Source of the DNA: Nitrospirales bacterium
GTDB taxonomy: Bacteria; Nitrospirota; Nitrospiria; Nitrospirales; UBA8639
Direction of reading: 5' to 3'
Length of the DNA stretch: 64,000 nucleotides
Assembly (NCBI GenBank): GCA_963555755.3
Contig: OY820905.2
Location: 4,224,001-4,288,000, forward strand
Shown here: in pieces, positions 1,136-12,090 of the stretch
How the letters are laid out: every line of letters starts with the position of its first letter
How positions within the stretch are numbered: the first letter of the stretch is position 1
Translations under genes and position numbers: made by a program
Notes under the pieces: model-generated
Told to the model about the DNA's origin: nothing
The model's database searches: none
The model's input: the letters and a program-made list of their open reading frames with translations, nothing else

Positions 1136-1648
1136 TTATTCAGAATCACCTCGCATCATAAATGGATGGTTCAGAATCCACATTTCATACATGGGGACGG
1201 CAAACATCACCAGAAAACTTAATAGCATGAGGACATCGCCGGATAACATCGTGATCACAAATATTGGGGACACGTACGTGATCAACCAGGGAGATACCAA
1301 ATCCAAGGTGACCCCAAGGAAGGCGGCCCAGGTGGTGATGACTTTTAATGTGGGGCTGATCATCGTGAGGTACAACACGTGAACCATGATCATGAATACT
1401 ACTGGCATGGTGAAAATATGAAAGTGGGTGGTCTCAGCTAACTGTCCAAACGACATGGGCTCGCCGAAGTTGGCATCCGAGCCCCGATAATGTTCGACAA
1501 GGCCTTTTGGTGTGAGATCAGTCATGCTATGTGCCCAAACCAAGGTGAAGGCAAAACCCACAAACATTAAAAGAAGAAACCAGGTGTAGACCAACCGGAT
1601 GTGCCGGTCGGTATCACGGAGCCGAAACCGAGTGTTGAAATTCCGCAT
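1136..1648 (-). CDS. Integral membrane protein (about 4 TM) with several His residues; last gene of the porin/FMN-binding operon
   Basis: Hydrophobic segments; HYRG and ETTHFHIF..VH motifs; 17 bp downstream of the FMN-binding gene. Confidence 0.7.
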   Translation of the reverse strand: MRNFNTRFRLRDTDRHIRLVYTWFLLLMFVGFAFTLVWAHSMTDLTPKGLVEHYRGSDANFGEPMSFGQLAETTHFHIFTMPVVFMIMVHVLYLTMISPTLKVITTWAAFLGVTLDLVSPWLITYVSPIFVITMLSGDVLMLLSFLVMFAVPMYEMWILNHPFMMRGDSE

Positions 1649-1665
1649 TCCAAACGAATCTGATC

Positions 1666-2379
1666 TTAGAGCCCTAAGATTGATTCAATGAATCCTTTTT
1701 CCGCATGGCCAGTGGCGATGACGTTTGTGCCGAGTCCACGGGGTTTTAAATAAAATTCGTTGACCAACACCAACACCCGCTTGACCCCAGCGCTGGCTGA
1801 CCGGACCGACATCGTGGCGCCGGTAATATTAATAATGTCTCGATTGATGCCGACGGGGTCTCCAACGGTCTTTCCTTCATATTGATAATTAAATCGTTTC
1901 CTGGCGATTTCATTGCCGCGTCCTTCGCGGTACACCAGGACTTCGAAATTGATGACCTCGCCCCCAGAATCAACGGCCACCATGTAGGTAATGGGACGAT
2001 GTTTGCCGATGGTATTTTGGACTATAGCGTACCCGTCGATGTCCTCTTTGGTTTCGCCAATATAGACATCAAAAGAGGTTTCCGGAAATTTCCATCCAAT
2101 GGTTTGTTCAACCAGGGTTTTTTGTTCAGGGGTTAATGGGAGTGTTTCTCGTCGGATCGTTTCCGATTCCGGAAACATGACTTTTGCGGCTTCTTCCTCG
2201 GTAAAATAAATCTCAATGTGCCCAAGTTCTTCTTGTGTGAGCCAGCGTTTCAAATCATGGTCATAGATTTTTTCTGGAAGAGAATCCTGGGCAAACACCA
2301 AAGACGGAGCAAATCCAAGCAATATGCTACCAAGGGTAAAAATCCACACAAGTTTTTGAATTAGCTTAAAGTCGCACAT
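1666..2379 (-). CDS. Exported FMN-binding domain protein (RnfG/NqrC-like ApbE flavinylation substrate)
   Basis: Signal peptide; GKHRPITYMV and YREGRG motifs; flavinylation motif DIINITGATMS. Confidence 0.85.
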   Translation of the reverse strand: MCDFKLIQKLVWIFTLGSILLGFAPSLVFAQDSLPEKIYDHDLKRWLTQEELGHIEIYFTEEEAAKVMFPESETIRRETLPLTPEQKTLVEQTIGWKFPETSFDVYIGETKEDIDGYAIVQNTIGKHRPITYMVAVDSGGEVINFEVLVYREGRGNEIARKRFNYQYEGKTVGDPVGINRDIINITGATMSVRSASAGVKRVLVLVNEFYLKPRGLGTNVIATGHAEKGFIESILGL

Positions 2380-2831
2380 CCCTTATCCCTCAGTTGGTTG
2401 GAAATTCGTTGCGCCAAGCGTTGTTCCTCTTCCACGACCGGAGGAATTCGTCTCCAATGAGTTGATTGGGACTGCACACCCATTGGAGAAAAAAATTCTC
2501 TGACTTGGTGAATGGATATTTCAATTGCCTGTGGATCTTGCTCAAGATTGAGAAAAAACCGAGCTCGTTCTTGATTGGCGTCCCGCTCCATAACGCCAGC
2601 TTTTCTTTTTGAGGTAAGGGCAATCCACTCCGTCGCAATGACGCCTTTTTCTTTATCGATTTGCCGAAGCTCAAATTCATCCACGCTCGCCAGGGAAACC
2701 GACCACGCTTGTTCATAGGAACAAGAAGCCCTCACAGTGAGGGGTGCACTTGAAAGGGTCGCGCACCCCACTGTGGAAACGAACAAGAGAAAAGAAAGCA
2801 CTACAAATTTACCCATAGCGGGGATGAACAT
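2361..2831 (-). CDS. Putative lipoprotein
   Basis: Lipobox-like TVGC after a hydrophobic stretch; DKEKGVIATEW; overlaps the next gene. Confidence 0.7.
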   Translation of the reverse strand: MFIPAMGKFVVLSFLLFVSTVGCATLSSAPLTVRASCSYEQAWSVSLASVDEFELRQIDKEKGVIATEWIALTSKRKAGVMERDANQERARFFLNLEQDPQAIEISIHQVREFFSPMGVQSQSTHWRRIPPVVEEEQRLAQRISNQLRDKGCATLS

Positions 2832-2840
2832 TTCTTTCGA

Positions 2841-4331
2841 TTAAAAGTACGTCGTGGCTGAAGCTTGCCAACCGTTGGCCGACCCCGGAGAATGTGCTGG
2901 ACCGACGGTTCCTGCATTATGGTCATTGAAGGTATAGCTAAACTTGACGACAGAATCCTCTGTTGGACGAAGATTGAGCCCCAGCGTGAGCCTGTCGATC
3001 TCATTGGCATTGGTTGAAGAGGCTGTATTCGTGTCAACTTGGCCCCAGCGAATAACGCCAGTAAAGGTTGATGCATCGCTAAAGTATGAGGAAGCCCATT
3101 GCTTTAGGGATGCTGGGAAGAAATGGTAATTTAATTGGATGTAGTATCCACTCATATTGGCCGGTGGAGCACCATTATTAAATGAAGTCGTCGGCATGGT
3201 CGTTCCACCTTCAATATTGGCCCAGGCTGCTTCGCCTTGTAGTTCAAAAAATGAAGTCGTCGGCATGGTCGTTCCACCTTCAATATTGGCCCAGGCTGCT
3301 TCGCCTTGTAGTTCAAAGGGGCCACGTTGAAGGTTTCCGTCAACCGCTAAAATTGTTAACGCATAGTCACTGTTGTCGTCCCAGTAGCCGTGGTGAATAG
3401 AGCCGGCTACCTCCACTCCAAGAATGGGGCTTAATGAAATACGACTGACAACGGCCTTATTTTCATTATTATCCGTTTTGAAACTTCCCCGAGAACTCCG
3501 TAACCCTGAGCTCTCCGTAATTGTGGTTGGCCCGCCGGTTCCAAATCCCATGCCGCCATCAAAGCCCTGTGTGACATAGATTTCATAATCGACTTTGGAA
3601 AGCTGGGTTGGATAAAACGTTCCAAAAAATCCAAACCCGGACTCCGCAAACGTCGAAGGAATGATAAGCCGGGACACCATTGGACGAAGAGGAAGATCAT
3701 TTAACGGTGAATCATGGATCAGGTTGAAACGTCCCATGGGAATTAAAATGATTCCTGCCCGTAGGTTAATCCAGTCTTCGAACCGGTAGTCCATCGTGGC
3801 GAATTCAATTTTGACATCTCCATCGCTTTGGTTGCCTTGTGGGCCACCATGTTCAATCTCGACTTCAGCGGCCACACTCAGTCGATCGGTCACTTGGGAA
3901 TAAAAGAACGGAACAAATCGTTCTTGGTCAAATTCCAACCCACGGGCACAATCTCGTGAGTCGTCATTACAGTCTGTAATCGTAAAATCAATGTAACCAC
4001 CGACAATGGTTTTAGGAGCTTTGACGAATGGTTTGGCGTAGACAGTGCGACCTCCCTGAAGACCACCACCACCGGTAAAGGTATCCCCAAACCGTTGTAC
4101 TTGTTGTGTGGTATCACCCAAGGCCGGCATTTTTTTAGAAAGATCAAGAGATGGAGGGTCAATCTGGGTCATGCCCCCGCCCATCATTTGCTGTTTGGTG
4201 TACCACTCTTGAAACATTTTTTGCATTTGTTCTTGTTGGGCCGGTGTAAATTCTTCACTCTCAGCCCAAACTTGCGTTTGAGGAACAATCATGAGGGCCA
4301 ACATTGCCCCCGCAATCAACAATCGTTTCAT
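2841..4331 (-). CDS. Outer-membrane beta-barrel porin-like protein
   Basis: Signal peptide; alternating aromatic beta-strands; C-terminal Phe (ATTYF); GGAG 9 nt before the ATG at 4331 (ORF track starts at upstream TTG 4346). Confidence 0.85.
   Translation of the reverse strand: MKRLLIAGAMLALMIVPQTQVWAESEEFTPAQQEQMQKMFQEWYTKQQMMGGGMTQIDPPSLDLSKKMPALGDTTQQVQRFGDTFTGGGGLQGGRTVYAKPFVKAPKTIVGGYIDFTITDCNDDSRDCARGLEFDQERFVPFFYSQVTDRLSVAAEVEIEHGGPQGNQSDGDVKIEFATMDYRFEDWINLRAGIILIPMGRFNLIHDSPLNDLPLRPMVSRLIIPSTFAESGFGFFGTFYPTQLSKVDYEIYVTQGFDGGMGFGTGGPTTITESSGLRSSRGSFKTDNNENKAVVSRISLSPILGVEVAGSIHHGYWDDNSDYALTILAVDGNLQRGPFELQGEAAWANIEGGTTMPTTSFFELQGEAAWANIEGGTTMPTTSFNNGAPPANMSGYYIQLNYHFFPASLKQWASSYFSDASTFTGVIRWGQVDTNTASSTNANEIDRLTLGLNLRPTEDSVVKFSYTFNDHNAGTVGPAHSPGSANGWQASATTYF
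3180..3317. repeat. Exact 69-bp in-frame tandem duplication inside the porin gene
   Basis: 3180-3248 identical to 3249-3317; duplicates FELQGEAAWANIEGGTTMPTTSF. Confidence 0.95.
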
Positions 4332-4404
4332 TCGAACGATCTCCAATTGTTGTTGGGGACTCTAATGGCCCTCAATGTCATTAAAGGGACTCTTGTGGTC
4401 CTCA
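4292..4404 (-). promoter_or_regulatory. Putative cis-regulatory RNA: two tandem hairpins plus a stem enclosing the porin RBS/AUG
   Basis: 19-nt direct repeats at 4356-4374 and 4386-4404 (16/19 identical, 30-nt period); inverted pairings 4292-4300/4366-4374, 4317-4323/4346-4352 and 4324-4327/4335-4338. Confidence 0.6.
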
Positions 4405-4438
4405 GTTTACGTTTTGGTGTTTAACGGATTGTAAAACC

Positions 4439-4657
4439 TCATTTGAAAAAGTTGGTCATGGAATTGGTGCATGTAAATATGCTGACTTCATGCGCCTTGA
4501 TACTGGCATAGGGAATAGAAACAATGCGCTTGCACCGTTTGCATTTGAGTTCGAGATTGTCCCCACGAATTTTTGCAATGAGATGGCCACATTCACATCT
4601 TGCCTCACTAGGCTGAAATTGCCGTTCTGGAAGTCTGCTTTTTATTTCTGGACTCAT
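4439..4657 (-). CDS. Small Zn-ribbon protein, Mu Com-like family
   Basis: 72 aa; RCECGHLIAK...LELKCKRCKRI matches the Com-type RC..CG.LLA...EIKC.RC pattern. Confidence 0.75.
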   Translation of the reverse strand: MSPEIKSRLPERQFQPSEARCECGHLIAKIRGDNLELKCKRCKRIVSIPYASIKAHEVSIFTCTNSMTNFFK

Positions 4658-4708
4658 TGAATTAAAATAAAAAATAGGATAGTTATAAGAGCTAATTAAA
4701 AATTATTA

Positions 4709-4751
4709 TGATATTTATTCTCATTTAAATTGATTTTGATAACTATTATTA
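4709..4751. promoter_or_regulatory. Two Fur-box-like 7-1-7 sites
   Basis: TGATATT-T-ATTCTCA (4709-4723) and TGATAAC-T-ATTATTA (4737-4751), each 12/14 to TGATAAT-N-ATTATCA; AT-rich divergent promoter region; fur and iron ABC genes nearby. Confidence 0.7.
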
Positions 4752-4972
4752 ATAATGAATTCGTAGGGGTCCTGTCAACCTCATTCTTTAACGAAATGAT
4801 TGCCACCTAACCTGTTGATTTACATGAATAAATATGGACGGAAATAACTTATCAACGTATATTGTATTAGAGATATCCTTGGCTTCTACGATCACCAACA
4901 CGCGATGTATTTCCATGACTTATACCGATTTGATAGAGAGATGTTTTATGGTCATGCATTCACACTCAGGAA

Positions 4973-6001
4973 ATGATGCAACAGGTTTCTCCCGTTATGC
5001 GTAAACTCTTGGGTTCTGTATTCGGATGTGTGTTGGTGTTGGGGCTGATTGGATGTGGTGCTTCCCCCCATTTGGTCAAACGTGGCCAAATGCATATGGG
5101 GACCTTGGTTTTTTTAACTGCCGTGGCACCGGACGAACAGATTGCCCACGACGCTGTTCAAAAGGGATTTGACGAAATTCACCGGTTGGAAGAAATCCTG
5201 AGTACGTGGATTCCCGAAAGTGAGCTCTCGCGAGTCAATGCGGGGGCGGGGCGAACAGCCATCGCAGTCAGCCAGGAGACATTCGAAGTGTTGGCGAAAT
5301 CCATCGAGATGGACCGTCTGACCGAAGGTGGGTTTAATATTGCCATTGGCCCGGCGGTCGAAGCATGGAATGTGAGCCGGGAGGGACGGATTCCCACACA
5401 AGAAGAGTTGGATGCTGTTCGCCCTTTACTTCACTTAGAGAATCTCCTACTGGACAAAGAATCACGCATGGTGTTCCTTCGCAAGCCAGGGATGCGCGTG
5501 GATATTGGAGGTATTGGCAAAGGCTATGCCGCTGATCTCGCGGCCCATGTTATGCAGCAAGCAGGAGCTACTGCGGGGGTGGTCGCAATCTCAGGTGATA
5601 TCAAGACATTCGGTCGAATGCCTGATGGAGAACGGTTTGTCTTTGGCATTCACCATCCGCGTCATGGGGGTGCGTTATTAGGACAGTTGGAATTGGAAGA
5701 TAAGGCGGTGTCCACAGCCGGAGATTATCAGCGCTACTTTATGAAAGATGGGGTTCGGTATCATCACATCCTTGATCCGCAAACTCTTCAACCGGCTCGT
5801 GCATCCCAAAGCGTCACCGTGGTGGCGAAAGAAGGTGTCCTTGCCGATGGATTGGACACCGGCATCTTTGTGATGGGCCCGGAGAAAGGGATGGCGCTGA
5901 TCGAGAGCCTTGATGGAGTCGAGGGCGTGATTGTGGGGGAAGACGGGGAGGTCTATATTTCGTCGGGGTTGAAAGAGCGATTCCTTCTGAATGATCAGTA
6001 A
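4973..6001 (+). CDS. apbE: FAD:protein FMN transferase (lipoprotein)
   Basis: MGT, SELSRVN, DIGGIGKGYAAD, STAGDYQRYF, YHHILDP, ADGLDT motifs. Confidence 0.95.
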   Translation: MMQQVSPVMRKLLGSVFGCVLVLGLIGCGASPHLVKRGQMHMGTLVFLTAVAPDEQIAHDAVQKGFDEIHRLEEILSTWIPESELSRVNAGAGRTAIAVSQETFEVLAKSIEMDRLTEGGFNIAIGPAVEAWNVSREGRIPTQEELDAVRPLLHLENLLLDKESRMVFLRKPGMRVDIGGIGKGYAADLAAHVMQQAGATAGVVAISGDIKTFGRMPDGERFVFGIHHPRHGGALLGQLELEDKAVSTAGDYQRYFMKDGVRYHHILDPQTLQPARASQSVTVVAKEGVLADGLDTGIFVMGPEKGMALIESLDGVEGVIVGEDGEVYISSGLKERFLLNDQ

Positions 6002-7218: not shown

Positions 7219-8292
7219 TTAGGAATTCCGAGATTGTTCAAACATCACGGTATGTGTGGCCTTCACTTTCAGTTCAACCTGGGCGTTGAGCGCATAGAAT
7301 TGCGTCGAAGATTCGCTGCAATGAACGAGGCGCCCCGATTCGAGACGAAGGCCGTATAAATTTTCCGATCCCCGAAATTGGCGTGTTTCAATTCGGGCTG
7401 AACCGCTCCCACTCCCACGGATTTCAAGGTCATCCGGTCGAATCATGACGTCTACCTGGTTGCTTCCTTGATAGCCTTGCGGAAGCGGCAGATCTCCAAT
7501 TTCAGTCACGACAACATGGTGATGAATCTCGCCGGGAATGAAATCTGCCTGACCGACAAATTCTGCGACAAAACGGGACGCGGGCAAATGATAGGTCGTT
7601 TCCGGTGAGGCAAATTGTTCCAGCCGACCTTGATGAAGAACGGCAACCTGATCGGCCATGGTAAAGGCCTCTTCATGGTCATGGGTGACTAACACCGCCG
7701 TGGTTTGAGTTTTTTTCAACAAATCATGCAGTTCGCCGCGCATTTTATAAGTCATGTCGGGATCGAGATTGCTGAAGGGTTCATCCAATAAGAGCAGCAC
7801 CGGTTGGGGGGCGAGAGCCCGAGCCAATGCCACGCGTTGTTGTTGACCACCAGATAGTTCATGTGGGTAACGGTGTCCGTATTCAGACAATCCGGTCAAA
7901 GAAAGCATATCGTCCACTCGACGACGACGATCGTGAGCGGATAATTGGTTGAGGCCAAAGCCCACGTTATCGGTCACGCGCAGGTGTGGAAACAGTGCAT
8001 ATTCCTGAAATACCATACCCACGCGTCGTTGTTCAGGGGGGACATGGTGGTTGCCATCTGCTACGGGTGTTCCATTCAACAGCACGGTCCCTTCTACAAC
8101 CGATTCAAATCCGGCGATAGCCCTGAGGGTCGTGGTTTTCCCGCAGCCTGAGGGGCCGAGCAAGGAAATGATATCGCCTTTGCGTGCCGTAAACGAAATG
8201 TTGTGAATCGCCGGTTGCCCTGACTCATACGAGCAGGTGACGTGTTGTAGCTCAAGGACAATGGGGTTGTCGTGTGGGGTTGCGTCAGTCAT
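7219..8292 (-). CDS. fbpC: Fe3+ ABC transporter ATP-binding subunit (FbpC/FutC-like)
   Basis: GPSGCGKTT, LSGGQQQRVALARAL, LLLDEP; C-terminal TOBE; operon context. Confidence 0.85.
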   Translation of the reverse strand: MTDATPHDNPIVLELQHVTCSYESGQPAIHNISFTARKGDIISLLGPSGCGKTTTLRAIAGFESVVEGTVLLNGTPVADGNHHVPPEQRRVGMVFQEYALFPHLRVTDNVGFGLNQLSAHDRRRRVDDMLSLTGLSEYGHRYPHELSGGQQQRVALARALAPQPVLLLLDEPFSNLDPDMTYKMRGELHDLLKKTQTTAVLVTHDHEEAFTMADQVAVLHQGRLEQFASPETTYHLPASRFVAEFVGQADFIPGEIHHHVVVTEIGDLPLPQGYQGSNQVDVMIRPDDLEIRGSGSGSARIETRQFRGSENLYGLRLESGRLVHCSESSTQFYALNAQVELKVKATHTVMFEQSRNS

Positions 8293-8300
8293 CGGAAGAT

Positions 8301-8405
8301 CGTGATGCGTGATGCGTGATGCGTGAAGCGTGAAGGCGCGAGATCAGAAAGGGGAAGGGGAAATTCTGTGGTGTATCTTCACGCATTACGCATCACGCTT
8401 TACGC
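8301..8405. repeat. Facing heptamer tandem repeats (GCGTGAT / ATCACGC) forming an imperfect hairpin
   Basis: CGTGATG x3 + CGTGAAG x2, then the complementary CTTCACGCATTACGCATCACGCTTTACGC. Confidence 0.75.
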
Positions 8406-10024
8406 TTAACGGGTTCTTGCACTTTTTTCAGTAATAGGAAAACGACGGGAATGGTAATCGCCACGATGAGTAAGGCCGGCGGGGCAGCCAGTTGATACAA
8501 CTCTTCACTCGCTTCCAGCCAAATTCGTATGGCGAGTGTATCGAACCCAACGGGACGCAGCAAGAGGGTCGCGGGCAGTTCTTTCATGCACTGGACAAAG
8601 ACCAAAATCCAGGCACTGAGGAATCCCCCTCGGACCAAGGGAAACGTGACCGTGCGAAACGTGCGTAAGGAACGAGATCCGAGACTTCTAGCCGCCTCTT
8701 CGAGATTCGGGGTCAGTTGATGAAGGGTCGATTCCATGCCCTGCAGCGCCACGGGCAGAAAGTGGACGAGATAGGCAATGAGCAGCACCAGGACCGTGCC
8801 ATATAACTCTGGCATGAGGTGCGAGACCAGAACGAGCACGGCTAAGGCCGCTACGGGGCCTGGTAAGACGTACCCCGTGTAGGCACCTTGGATACACAGA
8901 AGGCTGGCCCATGTTTGTTTGCGACAGGCCAAGTAGGCCAAGGGAATGCCACAGACAAGGGCTAATGTCGCCGTGATGCCGGCAAGGGAAATGGTGTTCC
9001 ACACATACCCCATGAATCCGCTGGCGAGCTCTCCGGCTGCAAGGGCATCCATGGTCCATTGCACCAACAGAAACACGGGGATGCCAAAGGCTGTTGCGAA
9101 GACGATGGTGAGGACTCCGGTGAAGCCAAGGGTTTGTAGGGGACTACAGGCCTGTGGAATCGGCTTTCGAAACCGGCCAGTGGTTTGATAAAACCGACTC
9201 CGTTGTCGAAACCAGCGTTCACCTAACAGGAAGATAAATGTGCAGGATACCAAGAACAGGCTTAAGCAGGCTGCGGCGGTATTGTCGAATCGTCCAGTCA
9301 TTTGTTGATAGATGGCATAGGTGAAGGTTTGATAGCGCAACATCGCCATGGCGCCAAAATCAGAAGCCACATATAGAATGGCCAAGAACAGTCCGGCCAT
9401 AAGCGAGGGCCGGATCATGGGTAGTGACACACGAAAGAAGGTGTTCAGCGGACTGGCACCTGTCGCACGCGCGGCTTCTTCAAAAGAAATATTGAAATTC
9501 TGAAAGGCTGATCGCGCCAATAAATAGACGAAGGGAAACGTGTTGATGGACATGACTAATGTCGCGCCCGCGAAACTGAACGGGGAAAAAATCTGCGCGT
9601 CAGCTCCTGCGACCATTTGCCAGGCATGTTCAAGCGGACCGTTGCGTTGCAAGAGAAATGTATAGGTGTAGGCGAGGACGTACGAAGGAATCGCCAAGGG
9701 TAGAATGATGAGCCAGTTCCACACCGTTGAGCCGACAAAGCGGTAACGAGTGAGAATCCATGCCAGAGAAACGCCTAGAACCAGATCAATCACCGCGACG
9801 CTGAGGGCCAATGAAAATGTGTTGAATAACAATTCAGGAATGCGAGTGGTCCACAGCCTTCGCCAGACTGCCGTGTCAGCCGTGATTGCGGAAACTATCA
9901 CGTACAACAAGGGAAGCGTAATCAGCCCTGCCAGGATAAAGGCGACAACAATCAAAGGAGAAGGAAATCGAAAGCGCGTACGTGACAAGCTGAGGGAAGG
10001 ATTAGCGAAGGCCAACGTGTTCAA
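8393..10024 (-). CDS. fbpB: Fe3+ ABC transporter permease (FbpB/FutB-like)
   Basis: Two EAA motifs (FEEAARATG, LEEAARSLG); PLAIPSYV; KELPATLLLRP. Confidence 0.9.
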   Translation of the reverse strand: MNTLAFANPSLSLSRTRFRFPSPLIVVAFILAGLITLPLLYVIVSAITADTAVWRRLWTTRIPELLFNTFSLALSVAVIDLVLGVSLAWILTRYRFVGSTVWNWLIILPLAIPSYVLAYTYTFLLQRNGPLEHAWQMVAGADAQIFSPFSFAGATLVMSINTFPFVYLLARSAFQNFNISFEEAARATGASPLNTFFRVSLPMIRPSLMAGLFLAILYVASDFGAMAMLRYQTFTYAIYQQMTGRFDNTAAACLSLFLVSCTFIFLLGERWFRQRSRFYQTTGRFRKPIPQACSPLQTLGFTGVLTIVFATAFGIPVFLLVQWTMDALAAGELASGFMGYVWNTISLAGITATLALVCGIPLAYLACRKQTWASLLCIQGAYTGYVLPGPVAALAVLVLVSHLMPELYGTVLVLLIAYLVHFLPVALQGMESTLHQLTPNLEEAARSLGSRSLRTFRTVTFPLVRGGFLSAWILVFVQCMKELPATLLLRPVGFDTLAIRIWLEASEELYQLAAPPALLIVAITIPVVFLLLKKVQEPVKRKA

Positions 10025-11030
10025 TCACGGTCATGGTGGGATCGCGGAGTTCAGCTAAACGGGAAAGGGGAACGCGCGCGACTTGAAAGCTTTTCAGGGG
10101 AAGCAGCTCGGGTGCAGCATCAACGTTGGCATTGAGTGGGTATTCTTTGTTGACGCTGGCGAACATCTGTTGTCCTTTGGTGGAGATAAGGAATTGGACT
10201 AGCGCTTTAGCCTGGGCCAGGTGTTTCGCATGTGCGGTGATGCCAATGCCCGCGGCATTTAAGACAAGGCCCATGCCGTTTTCTTCTTGATCAAGTAACA
10301 ACTGGGCAATCGGGGCATCGGGATGCTTGGCTAAATGGCGATAGATGTAATAGTGGTTCACGAGTCCGACCGCCACGTCGCCTCGTGCCACAGCCGCAAC
10401 AATCTGCCGGTTCTTTCCATACACCGATGAGCCGGCATTATCTTTGAGACCACGCAAAAACTCTTTGGTGACCGCGTCGCCTTTAGTCTCACGAATCACC
10501 GACACACCAGTTTGCAAATATACACTCCCGGCACTCGGAATGGCTACTTTCCCTTTCCACTGGGGTTTGGCAAGGTCCAAGATTGAAGAAAGAGCATCCG
10601 GCTTCACCATCGTCGTGTTATAGACCACCACCCAAATGCGTCCGGACAATCCGATCCAACTATTATCTGGAGCCCGAAACGATTGAGGAATAGCGGCTTC
10701 GATTCCGGGCATGTCAATGGCTTGGAGCAGATGAAGCTCACGCGCACGTTCGAGGGTCCCGGCATCGTTGGTGATAAAGACATCAGCAGGTGAGCGTTTC
10801 CCTTCCATCCTGAGCCGATTCACGAGGGCCGTACTATCGGCAGTGAGCATCTGAATAGCAATGCCGGATTCAGCCTGAAAAGCGTCGAGCACAGGTTTAA
10901 TCAAGCGCTCAGCTCGACCGGAATAAACCACGAGCGAATCACCAGAAAACGACAGTGGGGGGGCGCATAGGAGGGAGACGATAAGACAAACAGAATAGGT
11001 AAGGATTCTAGCTGTGGATTGAGAACGCAC
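10002..11030 (-). CDS. fbpA: Fe3+ ABC transporter periplasmic binding protein (FbpA/FutA-like)
   Basis: VYSGR, SPADVF, GLSGR and iron-ligand NHYY motifs. Confidence 0.9.
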   Translation of the reverse strand: MRSQSTARILTYSVCLIVSLLCAPPLSFSGDSLVVYSGRAERLIKPVLDAFQAESGIAIQMLTADSTALVNRLRMEGKRSPADVFITNDAGTLERARELHLLQAIDMPGIEAAIPQSFRAPDNSWIGLSGRIWVVVYNTTMVKPDALSSILDLAKPQWKGKVAIPSAGSVYLQTGVSVIRETKGDAVTKEFLRGLKDNAGSSVYGKNRQIVAAVARGDVAVGLVNHYYIYRHLAKHPDAPIAQLLLDQEENGMGLVLNAAGIGITAHAKHLAQAKALVQFLISTKGQQMFASVNKEYPLNANVDAAPELLPLKSFQVARVPLSRLAELRDPTMTVIEHVGLR

Positions 11031-11037
11031 GCGCTCG

Positions 11038-11520
11038 CTACCTTCGACCTGTTTGGGTGTTCAGTGCACGGCCACAGTTCTTGCACTCTCCATTGGGAAG
11101 CTGAACGGGATCGCCATAGATCTCAAGTTTGTGCGTATGAATCGTGAATCCATTTTTTCGTGCCACTTCTTCCTGAAGGTCCTCAATTTGGCAGTTCTCA
11201 AATTCGATGATTTTGTCGCAGGTCGTGCAGATCAAGTGGTCATGATGCCCCTTGTGCGAGACGTTATCAAACTTGGTTTGGGAGCCGAAGTGCTGTTCCT
11301 GGGCCATTCCGGTCTCACACAAGAGCTTTAACGTTCGATACACCGTGGCCAAACCGATGTGCGGATCCTTCTTGGCGAGCATGCGATACATCTGCTCCGC
11401 TGTCACATGTTCCATTTTGAGAAACGTGGTAAGGATGTTTTCCCGTTGCCGGGTGAGTTTCAGATTGTTCTTGGTCAGGTGCTGCTTGAGAATTTCGAGT
11501 TCTTTGGTGGGTTTCGCCAT
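11038..11520 (-). CDS. fur: Fur-family transcriptional repressor
   Basis: LKLTRQR, IGLATVYRTL, HHDHLICTTC, HKLEIYG; likely ATG at 11520. Confidence 0.9.
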   Translation of the reverse strand: MAKPTKELEILKQHLTKNNLKLTRQRENILTTFLKMEHVTAEQMYRMLAKKDPHIGLATVYRTLKLLCETGMAQEQHFGSQTKFDNVSHKGHHDHLICTTCDKIIEFENCQIEDLQEEVARKNGFTIHTHKLEIYGDPVQLPNGECKNCGRALNTQTGRR

Positions 11521-11623
11521 TAGTGGATTCTCTTTCTCAATTGAATATCCTATTAAAACCAAAAAAAGACAACAGGGTCAAGCCAAAAATGGGAGAGGTT
11601 GTGTTGTATGTGGTTTTCCCTCT

Positions 11624-12090
11624 GTCATTTCGACCCTTGGGAGAAATCTCTCATTCGACAATGAGGGGAGATTTCTCGCTCCACTCGAAATGACAAGACC
11701 GTTGTGATCTGTCATTTCGACCCTTGGGAGAAATCTCTCGTTCGACAATGGGGGGAGATTTCTCGCTCCGCTCGAAATGACAAGACCGTTGTGATCTGTC
11801 ATTTCGACCCTTGGGAGAAATCTCTCATTCGACAATGAGGGGAGATTTCTCGCTCCGCTCGAAATGACAAGACCGTTGTGATCTGTCATTTCGACCCTTG
11901 GGAGAAATCTCTCGTTCGACAATGTGGGGGAGATTTCTCGCTCCGCTCGAAATGACAAGACCGTTGTGATCTGTCTCGACCCTTGGGAGAAATGACAAGA
12001 CCGTTGTGATCTGTCATTTCGGGGAGATCTCTCATTCGACAATGAGGGGAGATTTCTCGCTCCACTCGAAATGACAAGACCGTTGTGATG
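11624..12090. repeat. Tandem array of 87-bp palindromic units (4 full + 2 internally deleted)
   Basis: Units start at 11624, 11711, 11798, 11885, 11973 and 12013; each GTCATTTCGA..GAGAAATCTC-loop-GAGATTTCTC..TCGAAATGAC plus a constant linker AAGACCGTTGTGATCT. Confidence 0.95.

Follow-up and report, generated by a model that had tools for sequence, protein, structure and literature searches.

The locus described here lies on the minus strand of a 64,000-nucleotide stretch of contig OY820905.2 from a Nitrospirales bacterium (hereafter the window). It comprises a short gene for a Zn-ribbon protein with a CxCG...CxxC arrangement of cysteines (the finger), a porin gene downstream of it and, between the two, a pair of hairpin-forming repeats (Table 1). 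The first-pass annotation of this DNA had reported two 19-nt repeats, 30 nt apart, behind the 72-aa finger gene, and we find the same layout, with a period of 30 nt. The named relatives of the locus belong to Nitrospirales and Nitrospira.

Table 1. Features of the finger-porin locus and its surroundings, in window coordinates
Feature	Position	Strand	Details
Com-like Zn-ribbon gene, 72 aa	4439..4657	-	Core R-C-x-C-G...C-K-R-C-K-R; single copy in the genome; no evident Shine-Dalgarno sequence
Distal Com-type hairpin	4386..4404	-	5' GA, 4-bp stem closed by C-G, loop C..GA, 3' C
Proximal Com-type hairpin	4356..4374	-	Both arms able to pair instead with porin coding sequence
Porin RBS (GGAG, 4341-4344), AUG (4329-4331) and 6-bp start-codon hairpin (4335-4340/4322-4327)	4322..4344	-	Alternative helix 4344-4352/4317-4325
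Anti-hairpin tract in signal-peptide codons	4292..4313	-	G run 4306-4313; 9-nt complement 4292-4300
Outer-membrane porin, presumed target of the leader	2841..4331	-	Porin_O_P, E 2e-5
Remainder of operon: lipoprotein-like protein (156 aa), FMN_bind protein (237 aa), membrane protein (170 aa)	1136..2831	-
Promoter-like TTGACA (4778) and two Fur-box-like sites (4732-4750, 4704-4722; 14/19 each)	4704..4778	-	Conserved; putative
apbE flavin transferase, divergent	4973..6001	+	Context
Fur and ABC transporter with solute-binding protein	7219..11520	-	Iron neighbourhood, 3-7 kb away

Upstream of the finger gene, the TTGACA element and an AT-rich box are conserved among relatives; the promoter at 4778 was not listed by a sigma-70 scan. 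The best Fur-box match in this region averages 14.0/19, compared to 10.0 in coding sequences and 11.1 in shuffled sequences (n = 94; scored against the E. coli consensus), and such consensus-like boxes suggest that Fur may control both the finger gene and the porin operon. The leader of the finger gene itself (4657-4700) is AT-rich and has no evident Shine-Dalgarno sequence, so that the basal level of the protein would stay low. Contigs from the RNA libraries of one study span 3618-4635 and 4255-4555, and tell neither the strand, nor the ends, nor whether a single transcript is involved.

Within the porin gene, at 3179-3249, lies a perfect tandem duplication of 69 nt. Contigs from two runs, one of them an RNA run, skip it, so it could be a strain variant or an artefact of assembly. 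The interval separating fur from its neighbouring gene (11578-12042) contains tandem repeats of about 80 nt, which give rise to repetitive ORFs and have the look of a dispersed repeat element.

The leader hairpins and a competing fold over the porin start

As had been proposed, each of the two repeats contains two GAGNNCC motifs and can form a small hairpin, with a 4-bp stem and a 7-nt loop, following the pattern GAG-RR-C[C..GA]G-YY-CC. The binding motif that the first-pass annotation gave for phage Mu Com, GA(G/A)NNCC in a hairpin, agrees with the SELEX core GAG(N)2CC reported in the Com study (PMC6483171), where the core is also found in bipartite form, the C-G closing pair is invariant and the loop GA is protected. 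The native Mu site has the same layout as the leader hairpins (5' GA, 4-bp stem, C-G closing pair, C..GA loop, 3' CC); the spacer of the window motif is 4 nt, against 2-3 nt in the SELEX motif.

A single paired bipartite motif occurs at chance level, with 9 instances in the genome versus 9, 3 and 6 in three Markov simulations; hence, the case for the element rests on the tandem arrangement, the position and the conservation of the hairpins. Strict and loose scans for further sites in the window's genome likewise gave chance-level matches only, and a loose nested pattern run over 401 genomes gave about one control match per genome and was not used as evidence. One motif-like sequence (GAG..CC/GAG..CC with a 1-nt spacer; G000:C1:3787648, plus strand) lies about 55 nt before a phoH-like gene and is probably a chance occurrence.

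The repeats were compared across homologous loci, as the first-pass annotation had proposed, using 94 distinct leaders (duplicates removed, window included). The hairpin with its C-G closing pair and C..GA loop is present in 93/94 leaders and the strict bipartite motif in 60/94, although leader and genome counts of this kind overstate independence, the genomes being kin. The control rates for the hairpin are 15% (reverse complements), 11% (CDS windows), 5% (upstream windows) and 21% (shuffles). Across 63 distinct separate hairpins, whose loops are 4-9 nt long with freely varying middles, the two variable stem positions give 126 cells, of which 122 pair (G-U 12, A-C 0). Because the stems keep pairing by way of G-U and without A-C, we take the element to be RNA. 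All 132 cells pair in 33 aligned hairpins with 7-nt loops, 8 of them changed on both sides, with just one pair covarying and two invariant. In Nitrospira leaders the element takes a nested form, consisting of a 4x4 internal loop and a terminal loop. Rfam returned no meaningful match for the element. CsrA-type sites were considered and rejected, as the GGA lies in the stem and not in the loop, where the CsrA consensus has it.

The segment 4280-4430 of the minus strand is predicted to fold as one long leader-to-coding stem of about 30 bp around the porin RBS and AUG (-47.6 kcal/mol, z = -3.7, with 0/200 shuffles as stable). The pairings proposed earlier largely recur in our analysis: the second repeat is complementary over 9 nt to the porin coding sequence at 4292-4300, the CCCC tract pairs with the G run at 4306-4313, and the helix given as 4317-4323/4346-4352 appears as 4344-4352 with 4317-4325. 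A helix at the start codon also exists, but its best-conserved form is the 6-bp helix with the AUG in its loop (4335-4340/4322-4327) and not the proposed 4335-4338/4324-4327. The last pair of this hairpin is kept in 35/35 sequences (C-G 28, U-A 5, U-G 2), changes that represent few independent events.

The region of the proximal hairpin is predicted to pair with porin codons 3-16 at a mean of -24.9 kcal/mol, beating synonymous shuffles at p<=0.05 in 68/93 leaders and exceeding downstream CDS windows (-13.2) in 88/93; the duplex is absent in about 6/93. The glycine codon in the G run is GGG in 80/82 genes, compared to 19% in the mature porin, and 12 genes are without that glycine. Native leader/CDS pairs are modestly better than swapped ones (-24.9 vs -21.9; median rank 25 of 93). 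The best covarying duplex pair (n=36) is A-U in 28, G-C in 3, G-U in 1 and A-C in 4, again amounting to few independent events, and in the close relative L029 both sides of a duplex pair differ from the window, with an amino-acid change.

Two mutually exclusive folds had been posited for the leader; the proximal hairpin and its duplex with porin codons 6-14 are both conserved, and folding models support their exclusion, with the proximal hairpin being kept in the MFE structure of only 12/93 leaders. The accompanying claim that binding frees the porin RBS is not borne out by equilibrium folding: when the hairpin is clamped, the opening energy of the -14..+6 region stays at 9.5, against 9.4 in the free state (27 lower, 28 higher, n=92), and that of the -16..+13 region is likewise unchanged. 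Opening upon clamping is seen only for windows reaching to +25 or +35 (68/92 and 73/92, respectively). Since the hairpin state costs 14.6 kcal/mol in the window's leader, hairpin capture would have to be co-transcriptional.

The finger family and terminator-type sites in relatives

The window protein matches PHROG 6417 ("translational regulator") with an E-value of 2e-4 and gpCom with 0.012. Its earlier designation as a Com-type protein stands at the level of the family, whose profile aligns with Mu Com in hhalign (95.4%, E 2e-8, 42% over 31 columns), and fails for the Pfam Com model (Zn_ribbon_Com, PF10122), to which the window protein has no match. In a family alignment of 33 members, gpCom (PHROG) is matched by 29/33 and PF10122 by 7/33 at E<=1 (best 1.8e-5). 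By sequence similarity, then, the finger family is a distant relative of Com. Its four cysteines are invariant, with a first knuckle of CxCG, in contrast to the CxxC...CxxC of the Mu Com family. A structural claim for the finger was dropped: its AlphaFold model is of low confidence (pLDDT 57, three strands), and a Foldseek search with it found nothing at E<=0.001. A sequence search of the PDB found nothing under E 0.3.

The finger core is under purifying selection (pN/pS 0.13, from 408 unsaturated pairs of 4371). The finger is present in 143/401 genomes of the phylum; the two main families contribute 126 (out of their 132 genomes), and 3 of the genomes fall outside the class. A wider profile search recovered 2157 proteins, the named ones including Nitrospira, Deltaproteobacteria and Binatia; there are 1574 family clusters at 50% identity (E<=0.001), among which may be phage Com proteins. 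Two fingers occur in tandem in the eleven top matches examined from this search, and tandem versions of 85-127 aa (proteins P0178-P0190) would fit a two-faced RNA site. Among 126 pattern matches in viral contigs we found no relative of the finger, and phage records yielded a single match, at E 8. The proposal of a non-phage Com homologue agrees with this, as does a target that is a porin rather than a DNA-modification gene.

We compared synteny across 110 loci, of which 30 were chosen through the porin and 80 were the top-ranked among 303 chosen through the finger; 106 of the 110 have the finger. The porin lies behind the finger in 104 of these 106, and the other two end at a contig edge. Finger gene, hairpins and porin make up a unit that is conserved across Nitrospirales. 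Finger paralogues at five loci (L121, L122, L128, L112 and L140) lack a motif downstream and stand before genes of other kinds (redoxin-like, membrane protein, TPR-like); these are possibly orphans or trans-acting copies. In other families of the class (L130-L132) the motif is a variant one, and the finger precedes a different outer-membrane-like gene of about 390 aa as well as an apbE-like gene; at L132 the finger lies directly behind a fur-like gene.

In Nitrospira, paralogous fingers have the nested motif behind them, and its 3' arm doubles as the 5' arm of an intrinsic terminator. This combination of motif and terminator arm is found in 87/401 genomes, all within the class and largely from one clade, versus 1 in the control. 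The finger is carried by 85/87 of these genomes, and only 2/258 finger-negative genomes, both draft assemblies, have the motif. Of the sites, 83/85 fold as terminators, a figure that is partly so by construction. Among the 124 matches listed from a motif-first search of metagenomes, 25 have a finger upstream in the same orientation (opposite strand 0) and 51 have an overlapping terminator, whereas 119 such matches in viral contigs had one finger, a chance-like number, and one overlapping terminator.

In nine regions chosen for the motif, sites close the porin operon and also precede genes for HD-domain, AraC, ECF sigma-FecR-TonB receptor, TonB and PepSY proteins, often without a finger gene beside them. 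No terminator-overlapping site was found in the window's own genome, including at the end of its porin operon. The earlier reading of the locus as a switch at the porin RBS therefore holds insofar as the leader hairpins are conserved, but is too narrow, as in relatives the motif overlaps terminators and recurs at several iron-uptake loci. Leader-peptide attenuation was rejected, given the many copies of the motif without an adjacent finger gene. Where a terminator-type site closes the porin operon at L398, L404 and L406, it is often followed by an HD-domain gene and an AraC gene, neighbours that raise the possibility of a link to cyclic-nucleotide signalling.

A predicted protein-operated RNA switch and its alternatives

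The most likely overall reading is that of a conserved protein-operated RNA switch, similar to Com/mom and domesticated into a likely iron regulon. Specifically, we propose, with a probability of roughly 0.6 on the sequence evidence, that the finger binds the leader hairpins co-transcriptionally, blocks their zipping with the first codons of the porin and switches porin translation on. Release of Fur at low iron would lead to transcription of the finger gene and the operon. Without the protein, the leader would form the long stem around the RBS and AUG, clamping the 6-bp start-codon hairpin; with it, two fingers would bind the two C..GA faces of each short stem, and only the weak start-codon hairpin would be left. 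In relatives, the same binding would block the terminator. The outcome would be positive feedback or a threshold step below Fur. A positive sign is presumed on two grounds: the motif fold is incompatible with the terminator, and Mu Com is an activator.

In a more tentative and rather doubtful extension, the finger would itself be the sensor, its CxC/CxxC site swapping or losing metal (Fe vs Zn) or becoming oxidised and thereby toggling RNA binding. It would then be a minimal bacterial counterpart of IRP/IRE, running an iron-uptake regulon via translation and antitermination, and such chromosomal switches might be the source of phage Com.

The main rival, which we regard as unlikely, grants that the protein binds the hairpins but has the long leader-coding stem act on the fate of the mRNA (nuclease cleavage, Rho loading or early elongation) instead of ribosome entry. 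The equilibrium model without RBS opening speaks for it, since the base pairs given up upon binding (+16 to +40) fall past the initiation footprint, as does the stem length of about 30 bp; yet the RBS and AUG always lie within the stem, together with a conserved start-codon hairpin, and translation is the step at which Mu Com acts (PMC6483171). A bound protein could also repress or buffer, through ribosome block or titration by the hairpins. That the folding test gives no sign for the effect, and that the proximal hairpin ends 19-26 nt before the AUG in most leaders of this type, would suit this idea, which nevertheless becomes improbable in view of the terminator sites, where stabilising the motif removes the 5' arm of the terminator (a positive logic), and of activation by Mu Com. 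Comparably improbable is a small ligand-binding riboswitch, sensing a metal or a nucleotide messenger, with the finger gene merely a co-regulated neighbour. Such an element would account for a motif that operates terminator as well as RBS platforms, turns up at a distance from finger genes and often stands before HD-domain genes, and two small hairpins before an RBS bring to mind the guanidine-II riboswitch; the tight linkage of motif and finger, the identity of the conserved bases with the published Com site, the freely varying loop middles and the lack of an Rfam match all point away from it.

Databases name Com relatives "DNA-binding transcriptional regulator", and each repeat has an inverted half, as would befit operators of a DNA-binding transcription factor. 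This possibility is made very improbable by the variable spacer (4-9 nt), by the occurrence of G-U (12) and not A-C (0) on the mRNA strand, by the strict orientation and by a site that lies downstream of the gene and far from the promoter. Least credible of all, and already largely refuted by conservation, is a prophage relic or chance repeats without function: the chance-level frequency of the single motif and the apparent dispensability of a Pseudomonas com (PMC3899960) would be in keeping with it, but the finger is retained in 126/132 genomes of the two main families with a pN/pS of 0.13, no viral relative was found in the viral contigs, and synteny is conserved.

The preferred reading, a protein-operated switch, has partial parallels in known systems. 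Proteins of the ANTAR/EutV (dual hairpins) and BglG/LicT-RAT systems stabilise a small RNA fold incompatible with a terminator or with a stem that masks the RBS, with ANTAR using two small hairpins and both outputs; their protein fold and RNA motif are unrelated to those of the finger system, and the finger is without a sensor domain. IRP/IRE in animals and RyhB under Fur likewise add a post-transcriptional layer to iron genes, but with different molecules, whereas here a finger of 60-70 aa would activate uptake genes. The closest likeness is to Mu, where Com activates mom translation at a hairpin adjoining an inhibitory start-codon structure (PMC6483171). Both systems have a four-Cys finger, encoded directly upstream of its target, and a short hairpin with a C-G closing pair and C..GA loop beside an inhibitory structure over the start codon, which is predicted and conserved in the present case. 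However, the system described here is chromosomal and vertically conserved in an iron-gene context, has a porin as its target and a first knuckle of CxC instead of CxxC. Its site, made up of two hairpins or of a nested form with a 4x4 internal loop, follows the stop codon rather than lying inside com and can pair directly with coding sequence; it is also coupled to terminators, and it is used at several loci.

Com-like genes outside Mu precede Pseudomonas llpA bacteriocins, tailocin cargo and levansucrase, a role for them being described as unexplored (PMC6240691). In Pseudomonas syringae, levansucrase (lscB) output stayed the same when a chromosomal com was given a stop codon (PMC3899960). 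Like the finger, these are Com homologues outside intact Mu phages and upstream of host-useful genes; as far as the available portions of these papers go, they differ in being phage-associated and PF10122-positive, with no RNA site or regulon given. We found no description of the motif, regulon or control circuit in the literature, although RNA-motif catalogues in supplements could list it.

Com was known so far as a phage activator with a single target, and the literature that we found assigns no role to chromosomal com-like genes. Our analysis predicts a large finger family with a defined RNA site and two output mechanisms, together with an iron regulon in Nitrospira-type nitrifiers and some Deltaproteobacteria and Binatia. 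It offers an RNA motif absent from Rfam, puts forward a candidate regulator of a porin-flavoprotein operon that is itself uncharacterised, and supplies a small protein-RNA pair testable in E. coli.
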